DNA from: a virus
Lineage: Duplodnaviria; Heunggongvirae; Uroviricota; Caudoviricetes
Strand: one strand, 5' to 3'
Length of the DNA stretch: 32,646 bases
Virus record (IMG/VR): IMGVR_UViG_3300037400_002787
Span: 64,001-96,646 of that record
Part shown: piece by piece, positions 8 through 32,646 of the stretch
Layout of the letters: each line of letters opens with the position of its first letter
Numbering within the stretch: the stretch's first letter is position 1
Translations under genes and position numbers: made by a program
Notes under the pieces: generated by a model
Database searches by the model: none
What the model saw: the letters and a program-made list of their open reading frames with translations, nothing else
What the model was told of the DNA's origin: nothing

Positions 8-3000
8 ATGCTTGCAAATCCCGAGGTTGTTAATACAGCGGCTGGCGAAATTCCGGTGCAGACCACCGTTCAGAAGGCTATAGTCGAAAATCTTGACCAG
101 CAGGCGGCACAGGGAAACCAGCAGGCCGGAGAGGCTCTAAGTGAACTCAAGGAGAATGTTGATGACGGGACAATTACTCAGGAAGCACATAATGTAGAGA
201 ATCCGTTGGTAGAGCAGCCGCAGCAGCCTGCAGATGTTCAGATGGCGAGTTCCGACGGCTCGTTTGTTCACACTTTGTCACCAGAAGAATCGGCGGTCAT
301 ACAGGCAAATCCAGAAAAGAGGGAAGTCCTGCAGCAGATAGTTGATGCCTCGGGCAAGTATGTCGATTCCACGGATGAAGCCGAAAAAGAGCAGATAGCC
401 GAAGGCATTAGGATGCTATATCAGATGTTCTATGGGGAAAAGAATCCGAAGAACGCATCGGGCGAAGAACCTAAGGAGAAAGAAACGGTAAAAGTTCTTG
501 AGTTCGAGGCAACCGATGATAAGGGTAACAAATCTACAGGAATCATAGAGGCGGATTCTAGGATAGATGCCATTAGAAAACTAATGAAGAAGGGTCTGAA
601 GCCAACCAATCTTAGCAATGAACCCTTTGATGTAAATAAGGACGATTTATCAACTTCAACACCACCACCGTCTCCACCCACACCGCCTACACCTCCCGAA
701 GGAGGAGGCGGAGAATCAGGCGGCCCAAACCCGCCAAACAATCCGCCTAACCCGCCAGACAACCCGCCGGATGAAGACGATGACGATAGCCGTAGTACAC
801 TGCCCCCCGCACCTTCCGACGAGGAATTCCGTGTTGGCGAGAACAAGTATAAGGTTGGCGGAATAACCTACACTGATGTGTCGGGCAAAGGTCTATTCCG
901 CACGGCCCTGGCTTCCTTTATGGCGGGTCTTCGCGGCGAGGGGGTTATTACTGGCTGGGATAGAATTAATGGCACATGGGATGCAATGAAGAGGTCTGAA
1001 AAAGGGGAGATGGTGCGAGATGGCATTGCTTCTGCCCTTTGCCGCGATACTATTGCAAATTATGCGAATAAGGACGGTTTGTCTGATGATGCAAAAATGG
1101 AGATAGCGGTCATTCAGGATATGATGAATCAGGCCGACACACCCGAAGCCCAAATGAAGGCAATAAAGCAATTCCAGAAATGGAAGGAGACTTACTCAAA
1201 GGAACTTGGCGAACTAGAAAAGCCAATCCCTGGACAGACATTCAAGCCGTTGCCTAACGATTATAAGGGAACAAAACCGCCGGTTTCTATCCTAAAGAAA
1301 TCGGAGGGATTTGAAGCGGACAAGGAGTTTGGAGACAAGGTGGCCGCTGGTCTGCAGGAACGGCTAGGGATTCTAGGATTTCAAATAGATGAACTTGTTG
1401 GAGTTAGTGTTGGTCCTTCTGCCACAACGGTAAAGTTCAAGATTCCGCCTACATTCGATATGACGGCGGCAAACAGCAAAAAGACCCGTGAAGCCCTTAA
1501 GGGAGCAATCGGCACGGAGGTGTCGAATGTGGAGTATGCCAAGGGCGAAAAGGATGTAATGTCGATAACCGTCACAAACCCAGAGATGCGTAATGTGTCC
1601 TTCTCGGATGTGATTAATAGTCAGAAGTGGAAAACCTTTGCAAAGAAAGCCGCGCTTCCAATCCCTGTTGGACGTGATTCCTCTGGCGAAGAAACAATGC
1701 TTGATGCTGCTACTATGCCGCAGACCATTGTAACCGGTGCTACGGGTTCCGGAAAGTCTGTCTTCATCTCCGCCGCTATAAACGGAATTGAAATGGAGAA
1801 GACCCCAGATGAAGCCCGTATAGTCCTTCTAGACCCAAAGAACGAATTTAAGATTCAGGACGGTTCTCCGCACCTACTCTTCCCAAGGGCTGGTGGAGAC
1901 CCCGACAAAGCCAAGGCTAGTAAGGATATGGCCGATGTTCTGGATTCCTTGGTTGCAATAATGAACGATAGGGTAACGAAGATAGGAGGCGTCATAGAGG
2001 GATTCAACCCGTCCAAGAACGAATTCAAGGGTGCCGCAGAACACTCAATCAAGCAGTATAATGAGGCTCACCCTGATGATAAGATGCCTCATATCCTCTT
2101 GGTGTTCGACGAAATAGCCAATGCCCGAGACAATGCAACAGCCGCAGACAAAGCCAGAATTGACGTCGCCCTACAGAAACTGACGGCTGTGGGCCGTTCT
2201 GTTGGCGTGAACTGTCTCCTTGCGACCCAGAGAGACGATGTTGGCTCTATCCCGGGAATCATTCAGGCTAACTGCCCAGGCCGCGTCACCTTCAAGGCTT
2301 CGCCAACCGATGCAAAGGCATCGCAGGAAGCCAAGGCGCTTGCCGGCAACGGAGACTACATTCTAACGGACAAAGCCGGGAACAAGACCCGCGGAAGAGG
2401 ATGTTTCATTTCGCCCGAAGAGGAAATGGCTATACCTTCCTACTACCGCGACCATATGGCTGGCGGTGATAATCCGGCAGAACCAACCCTTCCGAAGGAG
2501 TACACAGACGGTATAGTTCAGGCTGTAGAAAAGGGTGTAAACCTGTCTGTAGAGGCTATGGAAGGACTAGAGGATGCTTTCAAGGCGGCAGTCCCTAATG
2601 GGTGGACGGTAACTAAGGAGAAAGTTGACGGCAAGGAATATTGGAAAGCCTCCCCTCCAAAGCCTACTAGAGTTGATGTCAAGGAAGCAAAAAAGCCAGA
2701 GGCGGACAAAGCAAAGGGCGAAAAGCCAAAGGGACTTAACCTCAAGTCGAGACAAGAAGCCATTGAAAGCATCAAGGCGATGAAAGACGAAGCGATTTCA
2801 AAGGCTGATGCCGACTATGAGAAGGACGGAAATCTCGATAAATACGAGAAGGCGCTACAGAAGATAGGACAGGAAGAGCAGCGGCATATGGCTATCGTCA
2901 ACACTAGATTCCCCGAAATGATAGAAAACGGAGATGAGACGGATGATGACGAGGGGCAAGAGAATCCGTTGGAACAACCCGATGTGAGCAACACTGAATC

Positions 3001-3766
3001 ATCGGAAGACGATGGTGATACTCCCGCCGCTATGATGAAAGATGTTGAGGCACAACTCAAAGCAGAAAAAGAGCGCATAGACAAGGCTCTCTCAAAGCCG
3101 ACTCTCAAACTTAGGGATAGGCGCAAACTTAGGCAAGAAAAAGCCGCTCTACAGAAGAGATTCGACGATGCCAAGGCTAAGTTCAAGGCGGGCGGTACAG
3201 CAGACGAAATCCTGAACATCTTTGAGCCCGAGGAAAAAAAGGAAGAACCAGAGAAAATCGAGACCGCTCCGCAGTCTTCTGATGAAGATGTTCAGGTAGA
3301 TGCGGAAACCGTTGCCGCAAACGAGCAGGATGCGAAAAACGAGAAGTTGAGGAATTCTGTTCCGCCACAGAAGGGATATTCAGAGAAGACGATTGCAGGC
3401 TCTGCACCAGCGAAGAATAGGTTTGGGGTTATTTTCGTCAACGACCCCAAGACCGGTTCGCAGGGAAGGCTAATCCCCGACCCCAAGAATCCCAAGGGCT
3501 ACAAGTTCCAGAAGGACATCGACACCACGCACCCCGAATACAAGGGGTATATAAAGAAGCCCGATGGGACATGGGAACTGTCTCCTGAGGCCAAGAAGGT
3601 TGAAGAGGAGACGAGGCTAGACCGAAAGCAGTCAAGAGATGCGAAGAAAAGAGAAGAGGCACTAAAGCGGTTCAACAGGGCGAGGTTTGGCCACGACGAA
3701 GCTCCCGACAACAAGACAATCGTTGCCAATGCAGTGATGGAAGCACTTAAACTTGTGGAAGGATAG
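8..3766 (+). CDS. Giant acidic multidomain protein with FtsK/SpoIIIE motor (alpha + ATPase beta domains); may start upstream of the window
   Basis: FtsK-alpha-like segment (ERLGILG..VSVGPSATTVKFK..ITVTNPEMRNVSF, ~1340-1603), Walker A TGATGSGKS (~1733-1759), VLLDPK, Walker B LLVFDE (~2093-2113), GRSVGVNCLLATQR. Pro-rich and acidic linkers flank it. No transmembrane segment or gamma domain visible. Codons at 2-7 are sense, so the frame is open to the window edge. Confidence 0.85.
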   Translation: MLANPEVVNTAAGEIPVQTTVQKAIVENLDQQAAQGNQQAGEALSELKENVDDGTITQEAHNVENPLVEQPQQPADVQMASSDGSFVHTLSPEESAVIQANPEKREVLQQIVDASGKYVDSTDEAEKEQIAEGIRMLYQMFYGEKNPKNASGEEPKEKETVKVLEFEATDDKGNKSTGIIEADSRIDAIRKLMKKGLKPTNLSNEPFDVNKDDLSTSTPPPSPPTPPTPPEGGGGESGGPNPPNNPPNPPDNPPDEDDDDSRSTLPPAPSDEEFRVGENKYKVGGITYTDVSGKGLFRTALASFMAGLRGEGVITGWDRINGTWDAMKRSEKGEMVRDGIASALCRDTIANYANKDGLSDDAKMEIAVIQDMMNQADTPEAQMKAIKQFQKWKETYSKELGELEKPIPGQTFKPLPNDYKGTKPPVSILKKSEGFEADKEFGDKVAAGLQERLGILGFQIDELVGVSVGPSATTVKFKIPPTFDMTAANSKKTREALKGAIGTEVSNVEYAKGEKDVMSITVTNPEMRNVSFSDVINSQKWKTFAKKAALPIPVGRDSSGEETMLDAATMPQTIVTGATGSGKSVFISAAINGIEMEKTPDEARIVLLDPKNEFKIQDGSPHLLFPRAGGDPDKAKASKDMADVLDSLVAIMNDRVTKIGGVIEGFNPSKNEFKGAAEHSIKQYNEAHPDDKMPHILLVFDEIANARDNATAADKARIDVALQKLTAVGRSVGVNCLLATQRDDVGSIPGIIQANCPGRVTFKASPTDAKASQEAKALAGNGDYILTDKAGNKTRGRGCFISPEEEMAIPSYYRDHMAGGDNPAEPTLPKEYTDGIVQAVEKGVNLSVEAMEGLEDAFKAAVPNGWTVTKEKVDGKEYWKASPPKPTRVDVKEAKKPEADKAKGEKPKGLNLKSRQEAIESIKAMKDEAISKADADYEKDGNLDKYEKALQKIGQEEQRHMAIVNTRFPEMIENGDETDDDEGQENPLEQPDVSNTESSEDDGDTPAAMMKDVEAQLKAEKERIDKALSKPTLKLRDRRKLRQEKAALQKRFDDAKAKFKAGGTADEILNIFEPEEKKEEPEKIETAPQSSDEDVQVDAETVAANEQDAKNEKLRNSVPPQKGYSEKTIAGSAPAKNRFGVIFVNDPKTGSQGRLIPDPKNPKGYKFQKDIDTTHPEYKGYIKKPDGTWELSPEAKKVEEETRLDRKQSRDAKKREEALKRFNRARFGHDEAPDNKTIVANAVMEALKLVEG

Positions 3767-7044: not shown

Positions 7045-8139
7045 ATGGCTTTCACTGAATGCAAATTCCGTATGCCTAAGGTCAAGGTCGAGGGTTTCGC
7101 TCTCGATGAGGCCCCAGACAACCTCCGCACGATGGAGAACCTCGCTCTCATGGGCGTGTCCTTCAACGAGAAGTCCAGCGGAGTCAAGTACGTGATGGAC
7201 GCGATGCCTACTCAGGGCGTCACCAACCCAACCGCTACGGTCCCCGTGCAGTTCCTCCAGCACTGGATGAACAAGATTATCACGGTCGTGACCCAGGCTA
7301 CGACCGCCGATGAATTCCTCGGCCGCTCCACCTATGGTGAGTGGTATCAGGAGAGCATCGTCCTCCGTATCCGCGAGCTCACGGGCTCCGTCCGTCCTTA
7401 CGGCGACCATGCCCAGGCCCCTCTGGCACGGTACAACTACAACCAGGAAGACCGCACCATCGTCCGCTTCGCTCAGGGTATCCTCACGGGTGCTCTCGAA
7501 GAGGCTCGTCTTGCGGCCATCGGCCAGAAGTCTTCCGCTTACGAGTCTGACCGCGCGGCTCTCGGCCTCGCCTTCAAGCTCAATACGAATGCGGTTGCCT
7601 TCTTCGGCTACAACCTCGGTTACAACAAGACCTTCGGTATCCTCAACGATCCGAACCTTGCGCCTTATGTCGCTGTTCCCGAGAACAAGAACGGAGACAC
7701 GGAGTGGGCGAAGAAGAACTTCTACGAGATTGTCCGCGACCTCAACACGGCCGTCGCCGAACTCCAGAAGCAGTGCGCTGGTAACTTCATTCCGTCCAAG
7801 CATGCCTTCAAACTCGGCATCGCCCTCGGATGCGACCAGTTCCTCAACCAGGTCAACCAGTACGGCATCTCCGTCCGCAAGTACATCTCCGACACTTGGC
7901 CGAAGTGCGACCTCGTGGTTATCCCCGAGTTCGACAATGCTCTCGCCGGTGACAACGTTATGTACCTCAAACTCGACGAGCTCGCGGGTTCGCCGGTTGC
8001 GGAGCAGATCGTTCCTGCGGCGGTTCGCCTCGTTGGTTCGGTGCCGCGTGCAAGCGGTTTGTACGAGCTCTATTCGGATGCCACTGCCGGTTGCTTCGTG
8101 GAGCAGCCCCTCGGCGTGGTCCGTTTCTTTGGTATATAA
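7045..8139 (+). CDS. Major capsid protein (DUF2184-like, HK97 fold)
   Basis: 364 aa; NAVAFFGY..TFGILNDPNL..EWAKKNFYEIVRDL..SDATAGCFVEQPLGVVRFFGI typical of this family; AGGAG SD; strongest codon bias in the window; followed by a terminator. Confidence 0.9.
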   Translation: MAFTECKFRMPKVKVEGFALDEAPDNLRTMENLALMGVSFNEKSSGVKYVMDAMPTQGVTNPTATVPVQFLQHWMNKIITVVTQATTADEFLGRSTYGEWYQESIVLRIRELTGSVRPYGDHAQAPLARYNYNQEDRTIVRFAQGILTGALEEARLAAIGQKSSAYESDRAALGLAFKLNTNAVAFFGYNLGYNKTFGILNDPNLAPYVAVPENKNGDTEWAKKNFYEIVRDLNTAVAELQKQCAGNFIPSKHAFKLGIALGCDQFLNQVNQYGISVRKYISDTWPKCDLVVIPEFDNALAGDNVMYLKLDELAGSPVAEQIVPAAVRLVGSVPRASGLYELYSDATAGCFVEQPLGVVRFFGI

Positions 8140-8163
8140 CCATCATCTCCTTATCGGAGATAA

Positions 8164-8200
8164 AAACAACCCTCTACTTTTTAGTAGGGGGTTTGTTTTT
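8164..8200 (+). terminator. Rho-independent terminator after the capsid gene
   Basis: AACCCTCTACT-TTTT-AGTAGGGGGTT hairpin followed by TGTTTTTT. Confidence 0.8.
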
Positions 8201-8213
8201 TCTCTCTATGCTA

Positions 8214-8242
8214 TTGCATAGCCTCTAAAATTATGATATAAT
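8214..8242 (+). promoter_or_regulatory. Sigma70-type promoter for tnpB
   Basis: TTGCAT (8214-8219), 17-bp spacer, perfect TATAAT (8237-8242), 21 nt before the tnpB ATG. Confidence 0.75.
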
Positions 8243-8263
8243 ATATACCGAAAAAGTTGAGCA

Positions 8264-9535
8264 ATGTATAGAGGTATAAAAGTTAGGATATATCCGACCA
8301 AGGAACAAGAGGTTTACATTAATAAACTCTTGGGAAGTTGTCGATTTATCTATAACAAGTTCATAGATTTCTTCAATGATTTTTATAAAGAACATAGGAG
8401 GGGTGCATCTAGTAGAGAAGCATATCAATTTTATAAAAGGTTAAAAGAAGAATATGGTTTCTTAATGGAAGTCCATAGTAAGGTAATAAGTAATGAGAGA
8501 TTGATAGCTATACAAGCATGGGGGAACTTTTTCAAGGCGAAAAAGAAGCCTCCAAAAAAGAATGGTAAGTTGAATTTTGAAAAACCAGTATATCATATCA
8601 AGCATAGACATGATTCGTGTCTCTTTGATAAACAAGCATTTAGATATATTAAAGGTGATAGGATTTCATTAATCAAGAAACTATCTAATATTCTCTTTAG
8701 ATGCTCTAAACGAGATGCGAAATTCCTACGAGAAAATAATGAGAGTGTTCGTAGTGTAACTTTAAGGAGAACACCGAGTGGAAAATATATATGTTCAATA
8801 CTTGTAGAAGATACAAGAGAGATTAGAATGTCTCATAGTTCAAAAGAGATAGGTATTGATTTGGGAGTAAAGCATTTTGCAACATTGTCTGACGGAACTA
8901 AAATAGAGAATCCGAGGATAATCAAATCTTATATAGGAAAGATAAAAAGATTAGATAGAAAGTTGTCGAAATGCAAAAGACACTCTAGAAGATGGGAAAA
9001 GGCACGGATGCGATTAGCCAAAGCCTATGAAAAACTTAGTAATTGCAGGAAAGATTTCCATCATAAAGTATCATCTAAGTTAGTTAAAGAGTATGGAACG
9101 ATATGCATAGAGAATCTAGATGTAGCATACCTTTTAACCATCTGTGATGCAAATAAGGATGTAGCCGATGTAACTATGGCAGATTTCTTATATATGATAC
9201 GATACAAATGCGGGTGGTATGGAAGGTTACTAGGTGTAGTTGATAGGTTCTTCCCATCATCAAAGACATGTAATCATTGCGGAAATATAAATCGTGACTT
9301 AACCTTGGTAGAAAGAGAGTGGGTGTGTCCTAAATGTGGTAAACTTCTTGATAGAGATTTGAATGCTGCCATTAACATATTGAAGGATGGGAAAAAGCAT
9401 TTGGTAGGGCCGGGCTCGCCCGAACCGAACGCTCGTGGACAGGAGTGCATCAGAGACGATTGCCCGAAAGGGAAAGCGGAGGAGATGTCCTGGGCGAAGC
9501 GAGAAAAGAATGTGGAAGTGAACTTGTGTCACTAG
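8264..9535 (+). CDS. tnpB: IS200/IS605-family RNA-guided endonuclease TnpB
   Basis: N-terminal HTH (KVRIYPTKEQ..GSCRFIYN), RuvC-I GIDLGVKHFA, RuvC-II CIENL, Zn ribbon CNHCG..CPKCG, RuvC-III DRDLNAAINI; all three catalytic acidic residues present. Confidence 0.95.
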   Translation: MYRGIKVRIYPTKEQEVYINKLLGSCRFIYNKFIDFFNDFYKEHRRGASSREAYQFYKRLKEEYGFLMEVHSKVISNERLIAIQAWGNFFKAKKKPPKKNGKLNFEKPVYHIKHRHDSCLFDKQAFRYIKGDRISLIKKLSNILFRCSKRDAKFLRENNESVRSVTLRRTPSGKYICSILVEDTREIRMSHSSKEIGIDLGVKHFATLSDGTKIENPRIIKSYIGKIKRLDRKLSKCKRHSRRWEKARMRLAKAYEKLSNCRKDFHHKVSSKLVKEYGTICIENLDVAYLLTICDANKDVADVTMADFLYMIRYKCGWYGRLLGVVDRFFPSSKTCNHCGNINRDLTLVEREWVCPKCGKLLDRDLNAAINILKDGKKHLVGPGSPEPNARGQECIRDDCPKGKAEEMSWAKREKNVEVNLCH

Positions 9536-9575
9536 AAGCAGAGTCATAGCAGCCGCTTGGAATATTATCTTTCAA
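9404..9575 (+). ncRNA. Putative TnpB omegaRNA scaffold overlapping the tnpB 3' end; boundaries approximate
   Basis: GC-rich, self-complementary tail after the last RuvC motif (GTAGGGCCGGGCTCGCCCGAACCGAACGCTCGTGGAC..GAAGCGAGAA). TnpB omegaRNAs are known to overlap this region. Candidate right-end tetranucleotides are TCAC 9529-9532 and TCAA 9572-9575. Confidence 0.5.
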
Positions 9576-9583
9576 TGCTGTTT

Positions 9584-9617
9584 AACCCCACTTGCATGAG
9601 TGGGGTTTTATTTTTTT
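9584..9617 (+). terminator. Rho-independent terminator after tnpB
   Basis: AACCCCACTT-GCAT-GAGTGGGGTT hairpin followed by TTATTTTTTT. Confidence 0.85.
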
Positions 9618-9624
9618 GGCTTGA

Positions 9625-9645
9625 CCATTTCGGCATACTATAGCC
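9625..9645 (+). promoter_or_regulatory. GGCAT-N3-ATA motif (putative phage late promoter)
   Basis: CCATTTCGGCATACTATAGCC; the first 12 nt are identical to 27546-27557, and the core is shared with other gene starts. Confidence 0.5.
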
Positions 9646-9710
9646 GCCCGTGTGGGTTGCGGACAGACGAACAAAACTTGTAGCCACCGCGAACTAAGGA
9701 GCACAAGACT

Positions 9711-10142
9711 ATGGCAAAGAACTACATACATTCAACCGCCTCGCAGGATATGAACTATCCGATTTATGCTGGCGGGACGGACAGACCCCAGAAGGTCAAG
9801 GAAATCATCATCAAGGGAAGGGCGAACGTTGTTGACCCTAGAACCCTAATCACTCCCACGGGAGCGGTGACGGAGGTTTCCGATGCTGACCTCGAACTTC
9901 TCAAGAAGAGTTCCGCTTTCCAGCGGCATGTCGCAAGAGGGTTCATGAGGGTTATGACAGAGAGCGAGCTCAACACCAAGGATATGCAGAAGCGGGACAA
10001 TTCCGCCCAGTTGCAGGATGCGGAGTATGCGGACGGGACCGACCCACGTGTACCTAACTCGGGCAACTGTCAGGCTACCTGCGGAGAGGGAGACCGAATC
10101 CGCGGCAAGCGTGGTGTTGCTTTCGTAACCGACAACTACTAA
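9711..10142 (+). CDS. Conserved post-capsid hypothetical protein of this myophage type
   Basis: YIHST..IIIKG.ANV..L.TPTGAVTEV..LELL..F..HV..G pattern recalled from the gene that follows the capsid in this phage family; AAGGAG SD. Confidence 0.65.
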   Translation: MAKNYIHSTASQDMNYPIYAGGTDRPQKVKEIIIKGRANVVDPRTLITPTGAVTEVSDADLELLKKSSAFQRHVARGFMRVMTESELNTKDMQKRDNSAQLQDAEYADGTDPRVPNSGNCQATCGEGDRIRGKRGVAFVTDNY

Positions 10143-12938: not shown

Positions 12939-13379
12939 ATGAGTTGGTCATTTCAGATAAAGGATGTTTCCTTTGCGGGTTCTTCCGTGACGGTGGCGGG
13001 AATAACCGTCAACGACTTCATGGACGATGCAAACCCCGTTGAGTTTCAGGATGTCGAGGTCTCCTCGGTCGGAGTGAACTGCAACGGGTCGATGGTTCGC
13101 AACGCAAAGCCGAACGTCATTATGATGTCTCTCACGGTCATTCCTGGGTCGCAGAGCGATACAAGCCTCTACAACCTCTGGAAGAAGTATCGTGTGCAGG
13201 GCAACTACAATTCGCAGTGGGAGCAGGGGCTTTCCGCCACGGTAACAATCGGTTCCGGACGCGGAAGCCGTTCCTTCTCCAACGGAACGATGGTGAGTGG
13301 TCCCGGCGGTCCTTCGTCCAACGGCGAGGGTAAGATGACGGGTCGTACTTATACATTCGCGTTCGTGACGGCGAACTAA
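12939..13379 (+). CDS. Tail tube protein (DUF3277-like), copy 1
   Basis: Follows the sheath; SFAG..DFMDDANP..NG.MV..LTVIPGS..G..YTFAF; GC-rich, high-expression-type codons. Confidence 0.8.
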   Translation: MSWSFQIKDVSFAGSSVTVAGITVNDFMDDANPVEFQDVEVSSVGVNCNGSMVRNAKPNVIMMSLTVIPGSQSDTSLYNLWKKYRVQGNYNSQWEQGLSATVTIGSGRGSRSFSNGTMVSGPGGPSSNGEGKMTGRTYTFAFVTAN

Positions 13380-13489: not shown

Positions 13490-13948
13490 ATGGCGGGTAG
13501 AAATAGCCTTAGTGCTCTATACGATGTGTCGTTTGCGGGAAGCCGCATTGTAATTGGGGGTGCTAATATCACCGAATTTATGGATGATTCCAACCCCATA
13601 GACATTCAAGATACTGAGACAACCAATATAGAGTGGAGTTGCAATGGGAGAATGATACGCACTATCAAACCTGCTGCTATCATTCTATCAATAACGGTAA
13701 TTCCAGGCTCTGCATCTGACAACAGCCTAAGAAAAATTTGGAAAAATAGTTTTTGTAACGGCGGTAGTGTGGATATCGACCAGGCTAATCAGTCATTGAA
13801 TTGTATTATTTCTGCAGGAAACCCAAATATAGGAAGTTTTACTTTCACGGGTGGGACACCTATATCTGGAGCAGCGGCATTAACAGCTAATGGGCAAGGG
13901 AAGATGGGAGGAAATACCTATACTTTTGCCTTTGAGAATGTAGAATGA
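13490..13948 (+). CDS. Tail tube protein paralogue (DUF3277-like), copy 2
   Basis: Collinear with copy 1: SFAGS..FMDD.NP..QD.E..CNG.M.R..KP..I.VIPGS.SD..G.G.M.G.TYTFAF; AT-richer DNA. Confidence 0.8.
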   Translation: MAGRNSLSALYDVSFAGSRIVIGGANITEFMDDSNPIDIQDTETTNIEWSCNGRMIRTIKPAAIILSITVIPGSASDNSLRKIWKNSFCNGGSVDIDQANQSLNCIISAGNPNIGSFTFTGGTPISGAAALTANGQGKMGGNTYTFAFENVE

Positions 13949-27565: not shown

Positions 27566-30500
27566 ATGAAGACACTAGGAAGAAATGCCGACAACGACTT
27601 GTATCTTGAAGCGGGTGGACTAGCCATTTTACACGATGCCGATGCTCAGTGTGCCGTCATAGAGTCTGTTCTCCAGACGCAGAGGGGCGAACTCCAGTTC
27701 GATGAGGATGGTGGCATAGACTACTTCGGCACGGTTCTGCAGAATCCTAGATATATTGACTTCTGGGCGGGTCAGGTTCAGTCAAGAGTAGAAGCATTAA
27801 GTTTTGTCATGTCTGTGGAGGACTTCCAGTACAGATTCGACCGTGAAACGAGCACTCTCTACTGGTCGATGACTGTGATTACCACTGACAATGTTAGGCT
27901 CGACCTACAGAACAAGAAGACCGTCATAGAAGGTCGTCCCGGCATAGATGTGGACTGGAGCAACGTCTACGACAAGCCCGCCGGAATCGACGAGACCCTT
28001 GAGATGGTTGCGGACATGAGGGATGAGGCTCAAGACCTAAATGAACTTGATGCTAGGAGTACTCTGACAACAGTCAAGGACACCCTCAATAGAGTGGTTT
28101 TCGATCCCAACAACAAGAAGTATGCTGAAAGCCGCCAAATAAAGTTCAAATTCGCCGGAGTGCCGCTAGGTACTGTAATAGACTTCAGCAACCTTTCTTT
28201 TGGTCTGCAGAACACGGGTACGGCGACAGAGGAGAGGTATGTACCTTTCACCGTGGAGATTTCGGACGGCACTAAGAGAAGAAACCTTACGAATATGAAC
28301 GGCTCCGCTCTTAATGCGGAAACGAACGATGTCTGGTTTGTGGATGAAAATGCAAAGCCAGACGGAGAGGGCCACTTTCCTCCTACCCAGCGGCATACCA
28401 TCATGGTCGGCGGCACGATGGAGATTACCATTCGTGGCAACATCACATCGATCAAGAGCCAGAATGACGAAAAGCCGATATTCCTAAGGAGCGACGGAAC
28501 TCCGTTCCCTTACTTGGTGGGATTTACTGTAGGGTCTAGAATTCCACTTGAAACCATAGGGAGTGGGGCTTTCTGCGGACTCAAGAACCTCCAGACCATA
28601 GTATGGAACGAGCCCGACAACTCGACATACAACATCACGTTCGGAGACAGGGCTTTTGAGGGATGTGAATCCCTAACGGGGCTTTCATGGCTTCCCTATC
28701 GTCTAAAGACAATGGGCAACCGGTGCTTTAAGTCCTGCAAGGGAATCCTCAGCCTTGCATCATCAATCAAGACAAACAACAACACGACTTACATCAGGGG
28801 ACTTTCCACGACACTTGTGGAGGGGATACCCGAGAGCGCTTTCGAGGGATGCACGTCGCTTGGCTCGGTGGAGTATCTTCCGCCCTCGCTTGTTGCCCTA
28901 GGCAATAGGTCTTTTGCTGACTGCACTTCACTACTTGACATCGACGCACTGCCCGACACAATACAGTCCATTGGAGACGAATGCTTCGAGGGATGCTCGG
29001 GGATGCAGAAGATTCTCTATATGCCGACTTCCCTGAATACAATCGGGACAGGAAGTTTTAGAGGATGTACTTCGCTTCGCTCCCTTTTCATACCTAATAC
29101 CGTTGCCAACATAGGAAGCGAAGCCTTTGCCGGCAATACCGCCCTCACGAATGTTTTGTGCGAGAGGGTGAATGCACCCACAATCGACGAAACCACTTTT
29201 GACCAGGAAAGTCTGGACATATATGTGCCAGAGGGCTCTCTCGCCCAATACAAGGAAGCGAATGGCTGGAAGAAATACTGGGATTCTGAAAGCGACACGG
29301 GCACTATTTACGAATATGGGAAAGCCGAATTTAGGCTAGACAATGTACCGAGCGGCACGATTCTGCTTGGTAACACTAGCGAGATAGTGTCTTCTTCCAT
29401 ATGGTCTGTAGAGTACTGCGGAACCGGCGAGAGACCGCGGAGGTTCGAGTCCACGACTACCGCACTGCCGACATATGCCTTTGATGTTCAACCCAACTAC
29501 AACAATGTAGCAGGAACGGCGCTAGTGGTGATTACTGGCTACATAAGAAGTATGTCCGCTTTCTCGGAGGCATACCCGATGCTGGCAACCGCCGAAAACT
29601 CCAATCCATACCTAACAAGCATCTCTCTAAAACTGTCGAGTTCTCTGAATACGATTGGGGATTATGCTTTCGCTCAGTGTACAAATCTCGCAACCATTTC
29701 TTCCGACGAGAGCGACAATCCGTTCAGACTCGGTAACAGTGCTTTCTGGGGCTGTTCGGCGCTAGATAGCATGGAGTGGCTGAACTGCTATCCTAATCTT
29801 GGTATCCTTGAGCAGCCCGAGGACGAAGAGAGAGCATACTACCCCGCCTTTGGCGACCGATGCTTCTATGAGTCCGGGATAACGGCTATCTCATATCCGT
29901 CCGCTCATGTAGAAGAACTTCCCCCTTATTGCTTTGCCAAGACGAGAATCGCAAATCTGGAGGGAATCAAATCCTCAGTTTTGAACTCTCTGGGAGAACA
30001 CTGCTTTGAAGGATGCGAAAGTCTTACGACCATCTCCGATCTTCGCGACACGAGGGTGACGAAGATTCCAGCCTACGGATTCGCAGGCTGCACTTCGCTT
30101 GCAAGTCTTGACGGAGTTGACAACATCTCGGAGATGGAAGAGAATGCCTTCAACGGATGTGTGTCGCTTTCTACCATCGGCAACCTCTATCAGGCAACCA
30201 ACCTCACCGCACTGCCGGCACATTGTTTTGAAAAATGCACGGGACTCCAAGACCTAAACGGCATAGAGAGGATTTCAGAACTTGGAGAGTATGCATTCTA
30301 CGGGTGCTCCGGCCTCACTACATTGAATAGGATTGAACTGTCTCCGATAGACACGATTCCAGCCTACTGCTTTGCCAATTGTACCGGATTGACTATTCTG
30401 GTGGGCTGCTATTACATCAAGAATATAGGCGAAGGGGCTTTCTTTGGTTGTACGGGACTTCTTGCACCTTCGGGACTCGGTGCTTCCATAGTTTCCATCG

Positions 30501-32646
30501 GGGCTTCCGCATTCCAGAACTGCACGGGGCTGAAATTCTTCTCGTGCATTGCTCAAACAGTTCCTTCCGTCAGTCCGACCGCATTCAACGGAGTACCCGA
30601 AATAGCTCGAACCCTATATGTCAGAGACGGGATGGAATCCGCCTTTTCCAATGATGCGAATTGGAAAGCTGCTTTCCGCACGGTTTTGTCGAGGACGATT
30701 AGGATACGATATGAGAACATTGGCGGCACAACACCGGATGCCGTGAACATCAATAGCGATTCCGTTGCTTCCACGACCGTCAAGGGGTTGATTGTAGACG
30801 GCGACAATGCAATTCCGGGTGTATGGTTTGTAGACTATGGAGACGGCAGTGAACTCGTCAAACGTTACGATACTGAGAAACTTCTGCCTCACACCTACTC
30901 AGCGAGGGGTGGCTATGATGTAACTCTCTTTGGCGACATTGTGGAAGTCAAGGGAGCGGACGAGACATACTCCGAGACTGCCCACGGAGACCCCGAATCC
31001 GTTACCGTAAGTTCGTTCCTTTATCCTTTGGGCCGCTATGCATCCTCGGTTTCAATTAGTTCTCCATATCTCTCAAAGATAGGTGATTTCTGCTTCAATG
31101 GATATGGACGAACCAATGGAAACCTAGAGGTGTCCATAACGATGGAAGATAGCGGCACAATCGGTGCATATGCCTTTGCCAAGACGGTTGGGATACTCGG
31201 AGACATGTCGGTCTGCAATGCGGCCATTGTGGAGCCCTATGCATTCTACAAGAGCGGTTTGACATCTTCGGCCGCTTTCGTGTCCATAGTAGAAACAAAG
31301 ACCGGGGCTTTTGCCTACAATGAGAATCTGTTAGACCTTCTTGGTTTTTCTTCATTGAATACAATAGGCGAAAAGACCTTCGAGGGATGCATAGCCCTGT
31401 CGACCACTACGGGACTTTCTAGCACGGAGACCATCGGAAAGAGTGCATTTGCCGGATGTACGGGACTGACGACCGTAAGAGACTTTGGCGGCGGTCTAAC
31501 CAAAATAGAAGAGAGTGCATTTGCCGGATGCAACAACATTGCTACCATCTTCATGGCGCTGGAGAACCCTCCTACCTCTAACGGAAGGCTATGGAATGAT
31601 GGTGGAACGCTTGCGGAAAACGTCTTTGAGTCCGCAGTATTTGAGAATGCGATTCTTTATGTTCCCGTTGGAGCGGAAGCGAACTATGCGAACACCCCTG
31701 CATGGAACAGGTTTGACACTCAGGTGGATGGGCAAAGTCGTATCCGTTCGCGTTCTGTCATCTTCACGTTCAAGAACATAGTTGCAAACGATACCATTCC
31801 CAATGGCATATGCCTAGTGACTTCAACCGGTTCGTGGACAATCTCGTATGGCTCGCAGCAGACCAAGACCTTCACGGCCGGAACCGACATTCCCGTGCCC
31901 GAATATGTCTTCAACTCGCCCGATACGGCGAACGGGCAGATTGAAATCAAGATAAGCGGTGCTGTGACTGCCATTAAGGGAGTAGTAAAGAATAGGGACA
32001 CGAACCAATCAGGCACTCAGTCCATATTTGGCGATACGGTTGGAAGGAAACTAGTTTCCATATCGTCTTCGTCGGCTATGGAAATTTCCACGATAGGTGA
32101 AGGAGCTTTTTGGAACTGTTCGTCGCTTGAAACCGTCAAGACGATGCCCTCGGTGCAGACGATAGGGTATGGTGTCTTTCAGGGGGCAACCTCGCTATCG
32201 GATATTTCCGGTCTGTCCGAGGTAGTGGAGATAGATGCCTATGCCTTTAGCGGATGCTCTTCACTGAAAAGTCTATATGGACTGTCAAAGGTATCCACCA
32301 TAGGCGAATATGCATTTAATGGATGCGGGGTGAAGACGATTGATGCACTAGGTACGGGTATTTCTTCAATAGGCGCTTTTGCCTTTAGGGGTTGTAGCCT
32401 GAATGAAGTCCAGATGTTCGCTGAAAATCCTCCCACAATCGCCGCCACGACGTTCGACGAAACGGTGTTTCTATCCGCGCCGCTATATGTGAGGACAAAG
32501 GTGATTCCCGAATATTCTTCCGCAGATGTCTGGAGCAGATTTGCGAATATAAGGAGCAGATATCTGGAATTCAGCCTCGTCGGATGCCCGTCAAATCTCA
32601 CGGTAGCCGGCGAAGTGGGCAAGATACAGTCCAATACCTATTGGGT
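27566..32646 (+). CDS. Giant (>1690 aa, 3'-truncated) protein: gp25/W-like baseplate domain fused to tandem beta-sandwich/BspA-type LRR modules
   Basis: Translated by hand from ATG 27566; absent from the track because no stop occurs before the window end. N-terminus MKTLGRNADNDLYLEAGGLAILHDADAQCAVIESVLQTQRGELQFDEDGGIDYFGTV is W/gp25-like. Dozens of LxxIGxxAFxGCxxL repeats follow in four blocks, each closed by a PxxxxxxF..LYV..W cap. Confidence 0.9.
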   Translation, partial: MKTLGRNADNDLYLEAGGLAILHDADAQCAVIESVLQTQRGELQFDEDGGIDYFGTVLQNPRYIDFWAGQVQSRVEALSFVMSVEDFQYRFDRETSTLYWSMTVITTDNVRLDLQNKKTVIEGRPGIDVDWSNVYDKPAGIDETLEMVADMRDEAQDLNELDARSTLTTVKDTLNRVVFDPNNKKYAESRQIKFKFAGVPLGTVIDFSNLSFGLQNTGTATEERYVPFTVEISDGTKRRNLTNMNGSALNAETNDVWFVDENAKPDGEGHFPPTQRHTIMVGGTMEITIRGNITSIKSQNDEKPIFLRSDGTPFPYLVGFTVGSRIPLETIGSGAFCGLKNLQTIVWNEPDNSTYNITFGDRAFEGCESLTGLSWLPYRLKTMGNRCFKSCKGILSLASSIKTNNNTTYIRGLSTTLVEGIPESAFEGCTSLGSVEYLPPSLVALGNRSFADCTSLLDIDALPDTIQSIGDECFEGCSGMQKILYMPTSLNTIGTGSFRGCTSLRSLFIPNTVANIGSEAFAGNTALTNVLCERVNAPTIDETTFDQESLDIYVPEGSLAQYKEANGWKKYWDSESDTGTIYEYGKAEFRLDNVPSGTILLGNTSEIVSSSIWSVEYCGTGERPRRFESTTTALPTYAFDVQPNYNNVAGTALVVITGYIRSMSAFSEAYPMLATAENSNPYLTSISLKLSSSLNTIGDYAFAQCTNLATISSDESDNPFRLGNSAFWGCSALDSMEWLNCYPNLGILEQPEDEERAYYPAFGDRCFYESGITAISYPSAHVEELPPYCFAKTRIANLEGIKSSVLNSLGEHCFEGCESLTTISDLRDTRVTKIPAYGFAGCTSLASLDGVDNISEMEENAFNGCVSLSTIGNLYQATNLTALPAHCFEKCTGLQDLNGIERISELGEYAFYGCSGLTTLNRIELSPIDTIPAYCFANCTGLTILVGCYYIKNIGEGAFFGCTGLLAPSGLGASIVSIGASAFQNCTGLKFFSCIAQTVPSVSPTAFNGVPEIARTLYVRDGMESAFSNDANWKAAFRTVLSRTIRIRYENIGGTTPDAVNINSDSVASTTVKGLIVDGDNAIPGVWFVDYGDGSELVKRYDTEKLLPHTYSARGGYDVTLFGDIVEVKGADETYSETAHGDPESVTVSSFLYPLGRYASSVSISSPYLSKIGDFCFNGYGRTNGNLEVSITMEDSGTIGAYAFAKTVGILGDMSVCNAAIVEPYAFYKSGLTSSAAFVSIVETKTGAFAYNENLLDLLGFSSLNTIGEKTFEGCIALSTTTGLSSTETIGKSAFAGCTGLTTVRDFGGGLTKIEESAFAGCNNIATIFMALENPPTSNGRLWNDGGTLAENVFESAVFENAILYVPVGAEANYANTPAWNRFDTQVDGQSRIRSRSVIFTFKNIVANDTIPNGICLVTSTGSWTISYGSQQTKTFTAGTDIPVPEYVFNSPDTANGQIEIKISGAVTAIKGVVKNRDTNQSGTQSIFGDTVGRKLVSISSSSAMEISTIGEGAFWNCSSLETVKTMPSVQTIGYGVFQGATSLSDISGLSEVVEIDAYAFSGCSSLKSLYGLSKVSTIGEYAFNGCGVKTIDALGTGISSIGAFAFRGCSLNEVQMFAENPPTIAATTFDETVFLSAPLYVRTKVIPEYSSADVWSRFANIRSRYLEFSLVGCPSNLTVAGEVGKIQSNTYW

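Follow-up and report, generated by a model that had tools for sequence, protein, structure and literature searches.

The window, by which is meant here the whole 32,646-nucleotide stretch of DNA that was analyzed, ends at the last base of a 96,646-base genome record, a record which is ~38% complete. Running up to that end is an open reading frame (27566–32644, + strand) that starts with an ATG at 27566, remains open in one frame over 1693 aa, and is then cut by the contig end. Orthologues of its product open with the same residues. What is present, that is, is the gene's 5' half, encoding about half of a protein whose full-length size, going by sequence comparison, is likely ~3,400–3,900 aa (roughly 3,500 residues). 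The source is a large uncultured myovirus of the cattle gut. One bovine gut DNA sequencing run contains the stretch and is probably where it came from, and no RNA sequencing runs are listed as containing it.

Searches of viral contigs and of genome contigs, with aa 1–300 as the query, found no relatives, and thus supply neither a prophage copy nor a clue to the host. By tblastn the architecture was present in none of 50,697 GenBank phage records, matches there consisting only of generic leucine-rich repeat (LRR) ones, from unannotated gut contigs, along with small stand-alone homologues of the protein's N-terminal domain, from Vibrio phages. Nor did a literature search on phages with BspA, PF13306 or leucine-rich repeat find a study of such a protein, the closest related source being a preprint on phage Goslar (bioRxiv 10.64898/2026.04.21.720040).

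The product begins with a predicted gp25-like sheath-initiator (baseplate anchor) domain (27566–27925, aa 1–120), as identified by an AlphaFold model, structure matches and phrog_120. This is joined to what follows by a link (27926–28135, aa 121–190) which the secondary structure of the model resolves into a short, low-confidence loop and then two long helices, i.e., aa 141–156 and 167–188. Anchor and helices are followed, without linkers, by repeated units, each consisting of a ~75–110-aa beta domain (the 'spacer'), a BspA-type LRR_5 solenoid, and a cap. Four complete units lie in the window, all features being on the + strand.

Unit 1 starts with the longest of the spacers, a beta-sandwich (28136–28459, aa 191–298; spacer HMM match 194–298), which is followed by LRR block 1 of ~8 BspA-type repeats (28460–29152, aa 299–529; LRR_5 E 3.1e-34 over aa 297–586) and cap 1 (29153–29323, aa 530–586; cap HMM match ending at aa 591). 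Unit 2 consists of spacer 2 (29324–29560, aa 587–665; spacer HMM 589–665, 49 bits), the ~12 repeats of LRR block 2 (29561–30535, aa 666–990; LRR_5 E 5.3e-63 over aa 664–1043), and cap 2 (30536–30694, aa 991–1043; cap HMM match ending at aa 1048). With unit 3 come spacer 3 (30695–30955, aa 1044–1130; spacer HMM 56 bits), LRR block 3 with ~7 repeats (30956–31546, aa 1131–1327; LRR_5 E 4.1e-18), and cap 3 (31547–31753, aa 1328–1396; cap HMM match ending at aa 1402). The last complete unit is made up of spacer 4 (31754–31981, aa 1397–1472; spacer HMM 49 bits), the 5 repeats of LRR block 4 (31982–32407, aa 1473–1614; LRR_5 E 2.1e-24), and cap 4 (32408–32560, aa 1615–1665; cap HMM match ending at aa 1671). 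The first 28 aa of spacer 5 (32561–32644, aa 1666–1693) are then cut by the contig end, with this start colinear with spacer 5 of the relative P0007 (aa 1678).

An earlier, sequence-only reading of this DNA had described tandem modules of beta-sandwich, BspA-type LRR and cap, at least four of them plus the start of a fifth, and this description stands, with every motif that it quoted found in place and in one frame. That reading missed that the same ORF starts with a baseplate domain at 27566, and also that only about half of the protein is in the window.

Solenoids, caps and spacers

Against Pfam LRR_5 (PF13306; curated cut-off 27.7 bits) the whole protein reaches 377.7 bits (E 1.5e-114), and all four LRR blocks pass individually, at 65.9–211 bits (rounded, E 3e-34, 5e-63, 4e-18 and 2e-24), in agreement with their having been taken from the letters as BspA-type. 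The block coordinates of that reading take in the caps. There are 32 repeats at a spacing of 23–25 aa (~8, 12, 7 and 5 per block) and these follow the scaffold L..I.IP..V..IG..AF..C. Among 14 orthologues the F of this repeat is invariant, and entropy at its C, G, I, A and L positions does not exceed 1 bit. Scaffold positions are nearly fixed (0–1 bit), with the positions intervening between them highly variable (2.0–2.3 bits). Solenoid length across the family ranges from 5 to more than 40 repeats.

The cap, with motif PP...F...LYVP...Y...W..F, is the one with which bacterial BspA-type LRR domains ordinarily close at their C terminus, PDB 4fd0 and 4fdw among them: The cap profile matches residues 344–401 of the former (E 1.7e-9) and residues 341–398 of the latter (E 4.9e-9). 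It is found as well in 67 of 120 generic LRR_5 proteins, and thus, while outside of Pfam LRR_5 coverage, is a general feature of the LRR_5 family. In every relative the end of a cap abuts the start of the next spacer, and in most relatives the protein's terminus comes within ~30 residues of the last detected cap.

An AlphaFold model of cap 2 through spacer 4 (pLDDT 90.7, pTM 0.84), with cap 2 modeled as one strand plus two short helices, has as its closest structural neighbors 4fdw (Z 18.0; 245 aligned, rmsd 3.6), 6mlx (Z 16.2) and 4fs7 (Z 15.6), followed by 4gt6 (Z 14.8), 4h09 (Z 14.7) and PcpA (Z 12.8), with generic LRR proteins reaching Z of no more than ~10. The 4fdw alignment covers cap 3 (model residues 36–412). 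Foldseek matches the model to BspA-type LRR structures at E 4e-6 to 2e-4, and the viral models nearest to it are of phage proteins that carry a PKD plus LRR annotation.

BspA-type (TpLRR) proteins of gut and oral bacteria, the structures compared being those of Bacteroides BACOVA_01565 (4fdw), BACCAC_03700 (4fd0) and BACOVA_04585 (4fs7) as well as F. prausnitzii 4gt6, T. pallidum TpLRR (6mlx) and pneumococcal PcpA (4cp6), have in common with the phage units the ~23-aa consensus (...IG..AF..C...), the solenoid fold (Z 12.8–18.0) and the C-cap. One phage module is the counterpart of one whole bacterial LRR domain. The bacterial proteins, however, are secreted, single-solenoid proteins of the cell surface, whereas in the phage family 7–8 solenoids are chained on a virion baseplate domain, without signal peptide context.

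The spacers are a single homologous domain family, as judged by profile comparison. An HMM built from the window's four spacers alone picks up, in five other proteins, 21 domains scoring 8.5–41 bits, versus a top score of 4.0 bits among 126 reversed or block-shuffled control sequences, so that the relatedness of the spacers, as earlier proposed, is borne out. Structural match lists were filled by LRR, and spacers were searched only within larger models. Spacers 1, 3 and 4 are modeled with high confidence as all-beta, with 5–8 strands, i.e., spacer 1 at pLDDT >90, spacer 3 with 7 beta strands at pLDDT ~84–97, and spacer 4 at pLDDT 83–90. Matches of spacer 1 to CBM-type sandwiches are weak (Z 4.4–5.3). 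The last strand of the spacer (I.I.G.IT.I) enters the LRR directly, and the spacer thus acts as the solenoid's N-terminal cap. An Atlas feature search with spacer 2 gave scores of at most 0.79, a lead only.

As to what kind of domain this is, the third spacer had been singled out as PKD-like. It does hold the best such motif (WFVDYGDG...HTY...GGYDVTL), but its match to PKD_4 (20.5–20.7 bits, E 4e-4 to 5e-4) is below the Pfam cut-off of 27 bits, and spacers 1, 2 and 4 have no match to PKD HMMs. Of 82 spacers of relatives, 12 match PKD_4 (best E 9.9e-6) and 6 match PKD. The spacer profile also matches, over its central 35 positions only, the PKD domains of Clostridium collagenase ColH (E 9e-5) and, more weakly, 4xed, 1l0q and 1wgo. 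All members of the family, rather than the third spacer alone, thereby appear to be remotely PKD-like. The likeness to PKD domains (PF18911/PF00801), such as those of ColH (4jgu, 9lqj), lies in the central motif W.(D/Y)(F/Y)GDG...P.HTY...G.Y.V.L and in a predicted all-beta make-up at a size of ~75–90 aa, the difference in that the window's spacers are all below the Pfam cut-off and in that the motif is lost in most. A PKD-like spacer preceding the solenoid is specific to the phage family: among 120 generic LRR_5 proteins, 1 has it. A likeness to one unit is seen with single-unit 'PKD domain-containing' LRR phage proteins, e.g., M4QPG4 of Synechococcus phage S-SKS1 (BFVD).

Orthologues and the age of the modules

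Thirteen colinear orthologues, of 3378–3985 aa, possess 7–8 units and end at the last cap. Identity across orthologues is 70% for the anchor and 34–48% for the modules. Modules 1–4 of the window are positional orthologues in 13 of 13 of these giant relatives, with the best match having ~1.3–6 times the bits of the next one. The suggestion, made from the sequence, of evolution by module swapping is thus not supported. Duplication, as suggested along with it, has support only on a deep time scale, with module count differing between family members (2 to 8) and a single younger duplicate (43–48% identity) seen in another lineage. It is not supported as a recent process, given that modules within the window's protein are no more than 28% identical to each other and that the gene is without DNA-level repeats. 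The units, in other words, appear from sequence comparison to have arisen by old duplications and to be held now in a fixed order. As blastp of the protein against itself returns the identity match only, segment HMMs were used in place of such self-comparison.

No fast-evolving specificity module or LRR face was found, with divergence even across modules and with variable positions lying all round the repeat. A search for relatives of single modules found only generic LRR_5 proteins, at ~30% identity, and hence no recent bacterial donor.

The baseplate anchor and its operon

The N-terminal domain is predicted to have a sheath-initiator fold. Its AlphaFold model (pLDDT 92.7) matches, by VIA-align, Pa193 9b45_G (Z 12.8, 106 aligned, rmsd 2.1), Pam3 7yfz_X (Z 12.2) and 7kh1 (Z 11.8), and by Foldseek E217 8env_H (TM 0.81 by target) and T4 gp25 5iw9. 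By sequence the anchor matches phrog_120 (E 1.6e-9), falls short of the cut-off for PF10934 (13.9–14.8 versus 32.9 bits), and is without a match to PF04965. It is tied by phmmer to many ~115-aa proteins, and stand-alone homologues of ~185 aa span aa 1–183 of the protein. This is the sole gp25-like match in the 96.6-kb record, and no gp25-like domain was found in the window's other baseplate ORFs. As the record is ~38% complete, a second gp25-like gene may lie elsewhere in the genome.

Those ORFs constitute a complete myovirus baseplate operon, in the order sheath, tube, tape measure, Dit-like protein, plug, hub, spike, Baseplate_J, Wedge1, two small genes, and then the giant gene, and relatives keep this gene order. 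From such context the giant LRR protein would be a virion protein, one of the baseplate. The known sheath initiators T4 gp25 (5iw9), Pam3 (7yfz chain X), E217 (8env chain H) and Pa193 (9b45 chain G) thus resemble the giant protein both in fold, over its first ~110–120 residues, and in baseplate-operon location. They differ in being of 99–234 aa, whereas the anchor here carries ~3,300 further residues, and in that their genes precede Baseplate_J, whereas the giant gene follows the wedge genes.

Scanned in full against Pfam and PHROG, the protein matched only LRR families, two PHROGs of no known function and a baseplate-wedge PHROG, and showed no similarity to known tail-fiber or tailspike families. 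Adjoining the giant gene is one for a 269-aa product with a weak tail-fiber PHROG match, and relatives carry downstream ORFs of 509–792 aa. Because these are other candidate fiber genes, the arm may be accessory rather than the main receptor-binding protein.

Possible roles of the chain

LRR solenoids serve in binding, and those of BspA type rank with the most common surface-binding modules that gut bacteria possess. Binding is the most reasonable reading of these LRR_5 solenoids, and we infer a role in host-cell adsorption. The protein would be, on balance probably, a giant baseplate-anchored adhesin, its 7–8 old, fixed-order units forming arms that bind host surfaces. The gp25-like domain plus two helices would root the chain in the baseplate. 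T4 gp25 is found six times per baseplate. As gp25-type initiators occur once per wedge, each virion might bear six single-chain, 'beads on a string' arms, of roughly 50–80 nm in length, where this copy number and monomeric state are taken from the anchor fold only. Such arms, six and long, would probably grip the host cell. Along them a conserved hydrophobic LRR scaffold would present highly variable surface residues, and these surfaces may bind structures of the host-cell surface, giving rise to multivalent, possibly multi-ligand, reversible adsorption. Such binding might also contribute to the triggering of contraction, the arm being covalently continuous with the protein on which the first sheath ring is seated.

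The arms could instead bind targets other than the host, i.e., animal mucus or epithelium, plant fiber or other microbes, thereby holding the phage where hosts are dense. Adhesion to mucosa, as put forward in the sequence-only reading, belongs here. Consistent with this are the bovine gut origin of the sample, the often accessory nature of PKD and Ig-like domains on phages, the occurrence of LRR_5 proteins with dockerin domains (cellulosome-type contexts) among the structural and sequence neighbors, and the known adhesin role of BspA-family LRR proteins, by which bacteria and protists attach to proteins of their animal hosts (review PMC2843621). The chain, however, is positioned at the baseplate, the site of host contact, rather than on the capsid. 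It is tied covalently to the sheath initiator, and it lacks specific similarity to modules of known ligand, with the closest bacterial LRR_5 proteins ~30% identical, all of which make this alternative unlikely. (It resembles the 'bacteriophage adherence to mucus' idea that exists for Ig-like capsid domains.) Still less probable is a mainly structural chain, that is, a bulky baseplate skirt or 'fiber cloud' that spaces, shields or stabilizes without ligand recognition per module. The strong conservation of module order and number, the even divergence across modules, and the rigid coupling of adjacent domains that is suggested by the model (pTM 0.84) would fit such a structure, and for phage Goslar a speculative 'fiber cloud' made up of LRR-bearing virion proteins has been put forward (bioRxiv 10.64898/2026.04.21.720040). 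A fixed scaffold with highly variable exposed residues is nevertheless typical of binding surfaces, and ~10 kb of coding sequence is costly for a passive skirt.

That a diversity-generating retroelement (DGR), or other programmed hypervariation, acts on the LRR modules is very improbable and largely refuted. The sequence-only reading had pointed downstream for a DGR, and the analogy there is with DGR-diversified phage receptor-binding proteins only. RVT_1, however, is absent from the 96.6-kb record, and in four relatives the genes recorded over the 10 kb downstream include no reverse-transcriptase family. No template/variable-type repeat was found in the window's gene or, for the closest complete relative, anywhere in its 30.6-kb locus, the gene's only repeat there being a 58-nt pair of 72% identity. 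Orthologues furthermore terminate in an LRR cap rather than in a C-type-lectin fold. There is, lastly, scarcely any likelihood that the giant ORF is an artifact, whether through misassembly or because separate LRR genes were falsely joined to a small baseplate gene. The window's copy is indeed cut off where its contig stops, and misassembly is a common hazard with repetitive genes, but independent samples and assemblers (ENA, JGI, Logan) give the same fusion and module order in more than 20 protein clusters, and there are no DNA-level repeats to mislead an assembler.

To return to host-binding arms, a more elaborate version can be envisaged, which seems doubtful though worth stating. Six single-chain arms would each possess 7–8 specialized solenoids recognizing different host ligands, and their engagement, arm and sheath initiator being one polypeptide, would be passed mechanically to the subunit that holds the first sheath ring. 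If true, this direct 'sensor fused to trigger' design would dispense with the separate fiber-to-wedge relay of T4-type baseplates. If the modules do bind host surfaces, then they would be individually expressible probes that could help to identify the hosts of these phages, and the family would provide a naturally occurring case of multivalent, possibly multi-ligand, attachment.

Use of BspA-type LRR domains by phages is visible in annotations. The present family is the most extreme case in this analysis, with ~10 kb of coding sequence placing 7–8 complete LRR domains on a sheath-nucleating baseplate subunit. A clade of large uncultured phages, to which the window's cattle-gut phage belongs, conserves this architecture. 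Goslar gp161 follows the same logic, i.e., a conserved virion-docking front and a bacterial-type LRR back that is presumed to recognize the host. It consists of DUF7941 plus LRR, with the preprint suggesting host recognition for LRR-bearing virion proteins (bioRxiv 10.64898/2026.04.21.720040). There, however, one LRR solenoid, of the DUF285 or LRR_5 type, is found on a different anchor domain, versus 7–8 fixed-order units on a sheath-initiator anchor. For annotation, three reusable profiles have been defined, those of the PKD-like spacer, LRR_5 and the cap.

Units of the chain

The giant protein encoded at the end of the window is a chain of tandem modules, each a spacer followed by an LRR block and a cap. 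The array proposed upon a sequence-only reading is thus real, as its nine opening and closing spacer motifs, along with a PKD-like motif, are all found exactly where claimed, and as all four LRR blocks pass an HMM scan. That is, the protein at its full window length matches Pfam LRR_5 at 377.7 bits (E 1.5e-114), and blocks 1 through 4 match alone as well (E 3e-34, 5e-63, 4e-18 and 2e-24, respectively), with approximately 8, 12, 7 and 5 repeats at a spacing of 23-25 residues. These blocks are present where that reading had placed them (about 28547-29281, 29645-30680, 31075-31715 and 32085-32543), though its coordinates also take in the caps.

Those caps, for which Pfam is without a model, share the consensus PP......F.........LYVP......Y.....W..F..I over a 63-cap profile. 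This profile aligns with the C-terminal ~58 residues of two Bacteroides surface proteins of known structure (4fd0, E 1.7e-9; 4fdw, E 4.9e-9). Of 120 generic LRR_5 proteins with a single solenoid, 67 carry the cap and just one of the 120 carries a spacer. As judged from sequence, the modules end in the same C-cap that bacterial BspA-type LRR domains ordinarily have.

An HMM built from the giant protein's four spacers only picked up another 21 domains, scoring 8.5-41 bits, across five related proteins, with 4.0 bits the best score among 126 reversed or block-shuffled control sequences. After iteration, a spacer is found to precede each LRR block in every relative, the consensus over 82 aligned spacers being.I.F.L..V......W....GDG......P.HTY...G...I.I.G.IT.I. 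Scanned singly, 12 of these 82 match PKD_4 (best E 9.9e-6) and 6 match PKD, while the spacer profile matches the PKD domains of collagenase ColH (E 9e-5) and, more weakly, three other solved PKD domains. Going by these profile comparisons, the spacers are one homologous domain family, apparently remotely PKD-like, and the opening and closing motifs are the domain's first and last beta strands. Within the giant protein only spacer 3 matches PKD_4, at 20.7 bits and under the 27-bit cut-off, and it was to this spacer that a PKD-like motif had been ascribed. Given the profile and single-spacer matches, that description therefore probably extends, in degenerate form, to all of the spacers rather than being confined to the third.

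A model of residues 985-1480 (cap 2, spacer 3, LRR 3, cap 3 and spacer 4), based on an alignment of 21 orthologous or paralogous segments, has a mean pLDDT of 90.7 and a pTM of 0.84, the latter suggesting a defined placement of adjacent domains relative to one another. As modelled, spacers 3 and 4 are all-beta, with the final strands of spacer 3 continuing directly into the solenoid, and each cap consists of one strand plus two short helices. The nearest solved structures, by structural alignment and by Foldseek, are BspA-type LRR proteins (4fdw, Z 18.0; TpLRR 6mlx, 16.2; 4fs7, 15.6; 4gt6, 14.8; 4h09, 14.7; PcpA, 12.8), with generic LRR proteins clearly below these, at a Z of at most ~10. The nearest viral models are phage proteins labelled 'PKD domain-containing' or 'leucine-rich repeat', e.g., from Synechococcus phage S-SKS1, and in the ESM Atlas the closest clusters are LRR_5 families from Bacteroidota and viruses.

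The anchor and its operon

The chain begins with a gp25-like anchor. In a model of residues 1-330 (pLDDT 92.7), residues 1 to ~120 have the fold of a contractile-tail sheath initiator, matching those of Pa193 (9b45_G, Z 12.8), Pam3 (7yfz_X, Z 12.2), XM1 (Z 11.8), E217 (8env_H, TM 0.81) and T4 gp25. Next are a loop, short and modelled at low confidence, and two long helices, which lead to spacer 1, modelled as a beta-sandwich. Pfam PF10934 matches the anchor weakly (13.9-14.8 bits), and this is the sole gp25-like match in the record. By phmmer the anchor is related to many stand-alone proteins of ~115 aa and to others of ~185 aa which span the helices as well. Five stand-alone proteins of 183-198 aa (P0025 and P0029-P0032) match residues 1-183, i.e., the gp25-like domain plus two linker helices, and probably represent the ancestral anchor before its fusion.

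The window is the final 32.6 kb of a 96,646-base IMG/VR record that is ~38% complete by CheckV, and its long ORFs, all on the + strand, together read as a myovirus structural operon. This starts with an FtsK-like protein, a head protease and the major head protein, followed by an IS200/605-type transposase, then sheath, two tube-like genes and a 1476-aa tape measure, then a Dit-like protein, Pam3_gp18-type plug, hub and spike, and then Baseplate_J, a DUF2612/Wedge1 protein and two small proteins. Last is the giant-protein ORF, 27566 (ATG) to 32644, which supplies 1693 aa and no stop, as it is cut by the contig end. The FtsK/SpoIIIE-type motor at the operon's head end (8-3766) is of 1252 aa. 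The transposase gene (8264-9535; phrog_506, E 5e-102) separates the major head protein from the virion genes that follow, and it falls in composition bin 8001-10000, whose GC, 0.41, is the lowest in the window. Immediately past the sheath gene, adjacent paralogues of 146 and 152 aa (12939-13379 and 13490-13948, both phrog_2420) suggest duplication of a tail-tube-type gene. A metagenome run from bovine gut contains 99% of the window's sampled words and is the probable source of the window.

Relatives and module history

An exhaustive search using residues 1-300 found ~25 fused proteins, including 13 colinear giants of 3378-3985 aa with 50-77% identity over the matched part of this front. Giants carry 7-8 units, with unit 7 very long (~1,180 aa in P0007, the closest relative), and in every relative the end of a cap is the start of the next spacer. 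Given this length, unit number and colinearity, the window is estimated therefore to cover roughly the first half of the giant protein. In most giants LRR_5 continues all along, with the C-terminus within ~30 residues of the last detected cap. P0007 (3529 aa) is 56% identical over the first 1,744 alignment columns, i.e., to about query residue 1467, and its gene, carried by a 159-kb contig, has the same operon around it, in a gene order common to the other relatives examined.

In all 13 giants, each of modules 1-4 is matched best by the module of the same rank in the chain, usually at 2-6 times the bit score of the paralogue coming second (minimum 1.3 times). Mutual identity among the protein's own modules is at most 28%, and its gene within the window lacks tandem DNA repeats, the only matches being imperfect ones of 21-33 nt where peptide motifs are conserved. 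The chain's duplications therefore appear to be mostly old. Duplication, as had been proposed, thus did build the chain, but recent duplication or swapping is unsupported in this lineage. Identity across orthologues is 70% for the anchor and 34-48% for every spacer, solenoid and cap, with no module standing out; within LRR repeats, scaffold positions are nearly fixed and those in between highly variable (2.0-2.3 bits). More distant lineages have 2, 4-5 or 5-7 modules. In one of these, of 2,400 aa (P0003/P0004; L002:10001-17245), modules 1 and 5 share 43-48% identity along their full length, a whole-module duplication younger than any in the giant protein.

Immediately 3' of the giant gene in every relative examined is an ORF of 157-168 aa with no Pfam match (L002:17296-17772, L004:15608-16114, L006:20650-21126 and L008:20255-20728), the equivalent site being just past the window's end; its product may serve as a chaperone in assembly. 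In the closest complete relative there is also a second LRR_5 gene, of 501 aa (L006:25776-27281), ~5 kb 3' of the giant gene. Within it, L006:26402-27160 consists of eight tandem copies of a 69-nt (23-aa) unit, 64-87% identical, a recent LRR repeat expansion, in contrast to the giant protein's modules, which are old and diverged.

A possible role at the baseplate

LRR solenoids are binding modules, and gp25 is present as one per wedge, six per baseplate. An anchor serving as a gp25-type subunit, one per wedge, therefore would give rise to six single-chain arms per baseplate. Each might extend roughly 50-80 nm (~100 repeats at ~0.5 nm, plus connectors), and these arms would probably bind the host surface multivalently.

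Less probably, such arms stick to non-host substrates or the chain is mainly a structural skirt. That the giant ORF is an assembly artefact is very unlikely, since more than 20 protein clusters, from independent samples and assemblers, show this fusion and module order too. It is also very unlikely that the modules are the target of a DGR, for which a search downstream had been suggested: no reverse transcriptase was found anywhere in the 96,646-base record, nor among genes recorded up to 10 kb downstream of the giant gene in relatives, and the 30.6-kb locus of the closest complete relative holds no template-like repeat.

Proteins with LRR_5 and DUF285-type LRRs are annotated across many phage genomes. 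No cultured phage or GenBank phage record was found with the giant protein's architecture, nor did a literature search find a paper describing it. For phage Goslar, host recognition has been suggested for virion proteins combining a docking module with LRR domains (2026 preprint, bioRxiv 10.64898/2026.04.21.720040). What is new with the giant family, as compared with those proteins, is the chaining in fixed order of 7-8 complete PKD-like, LRR_5 and cap units, joined to a sheath initiator.
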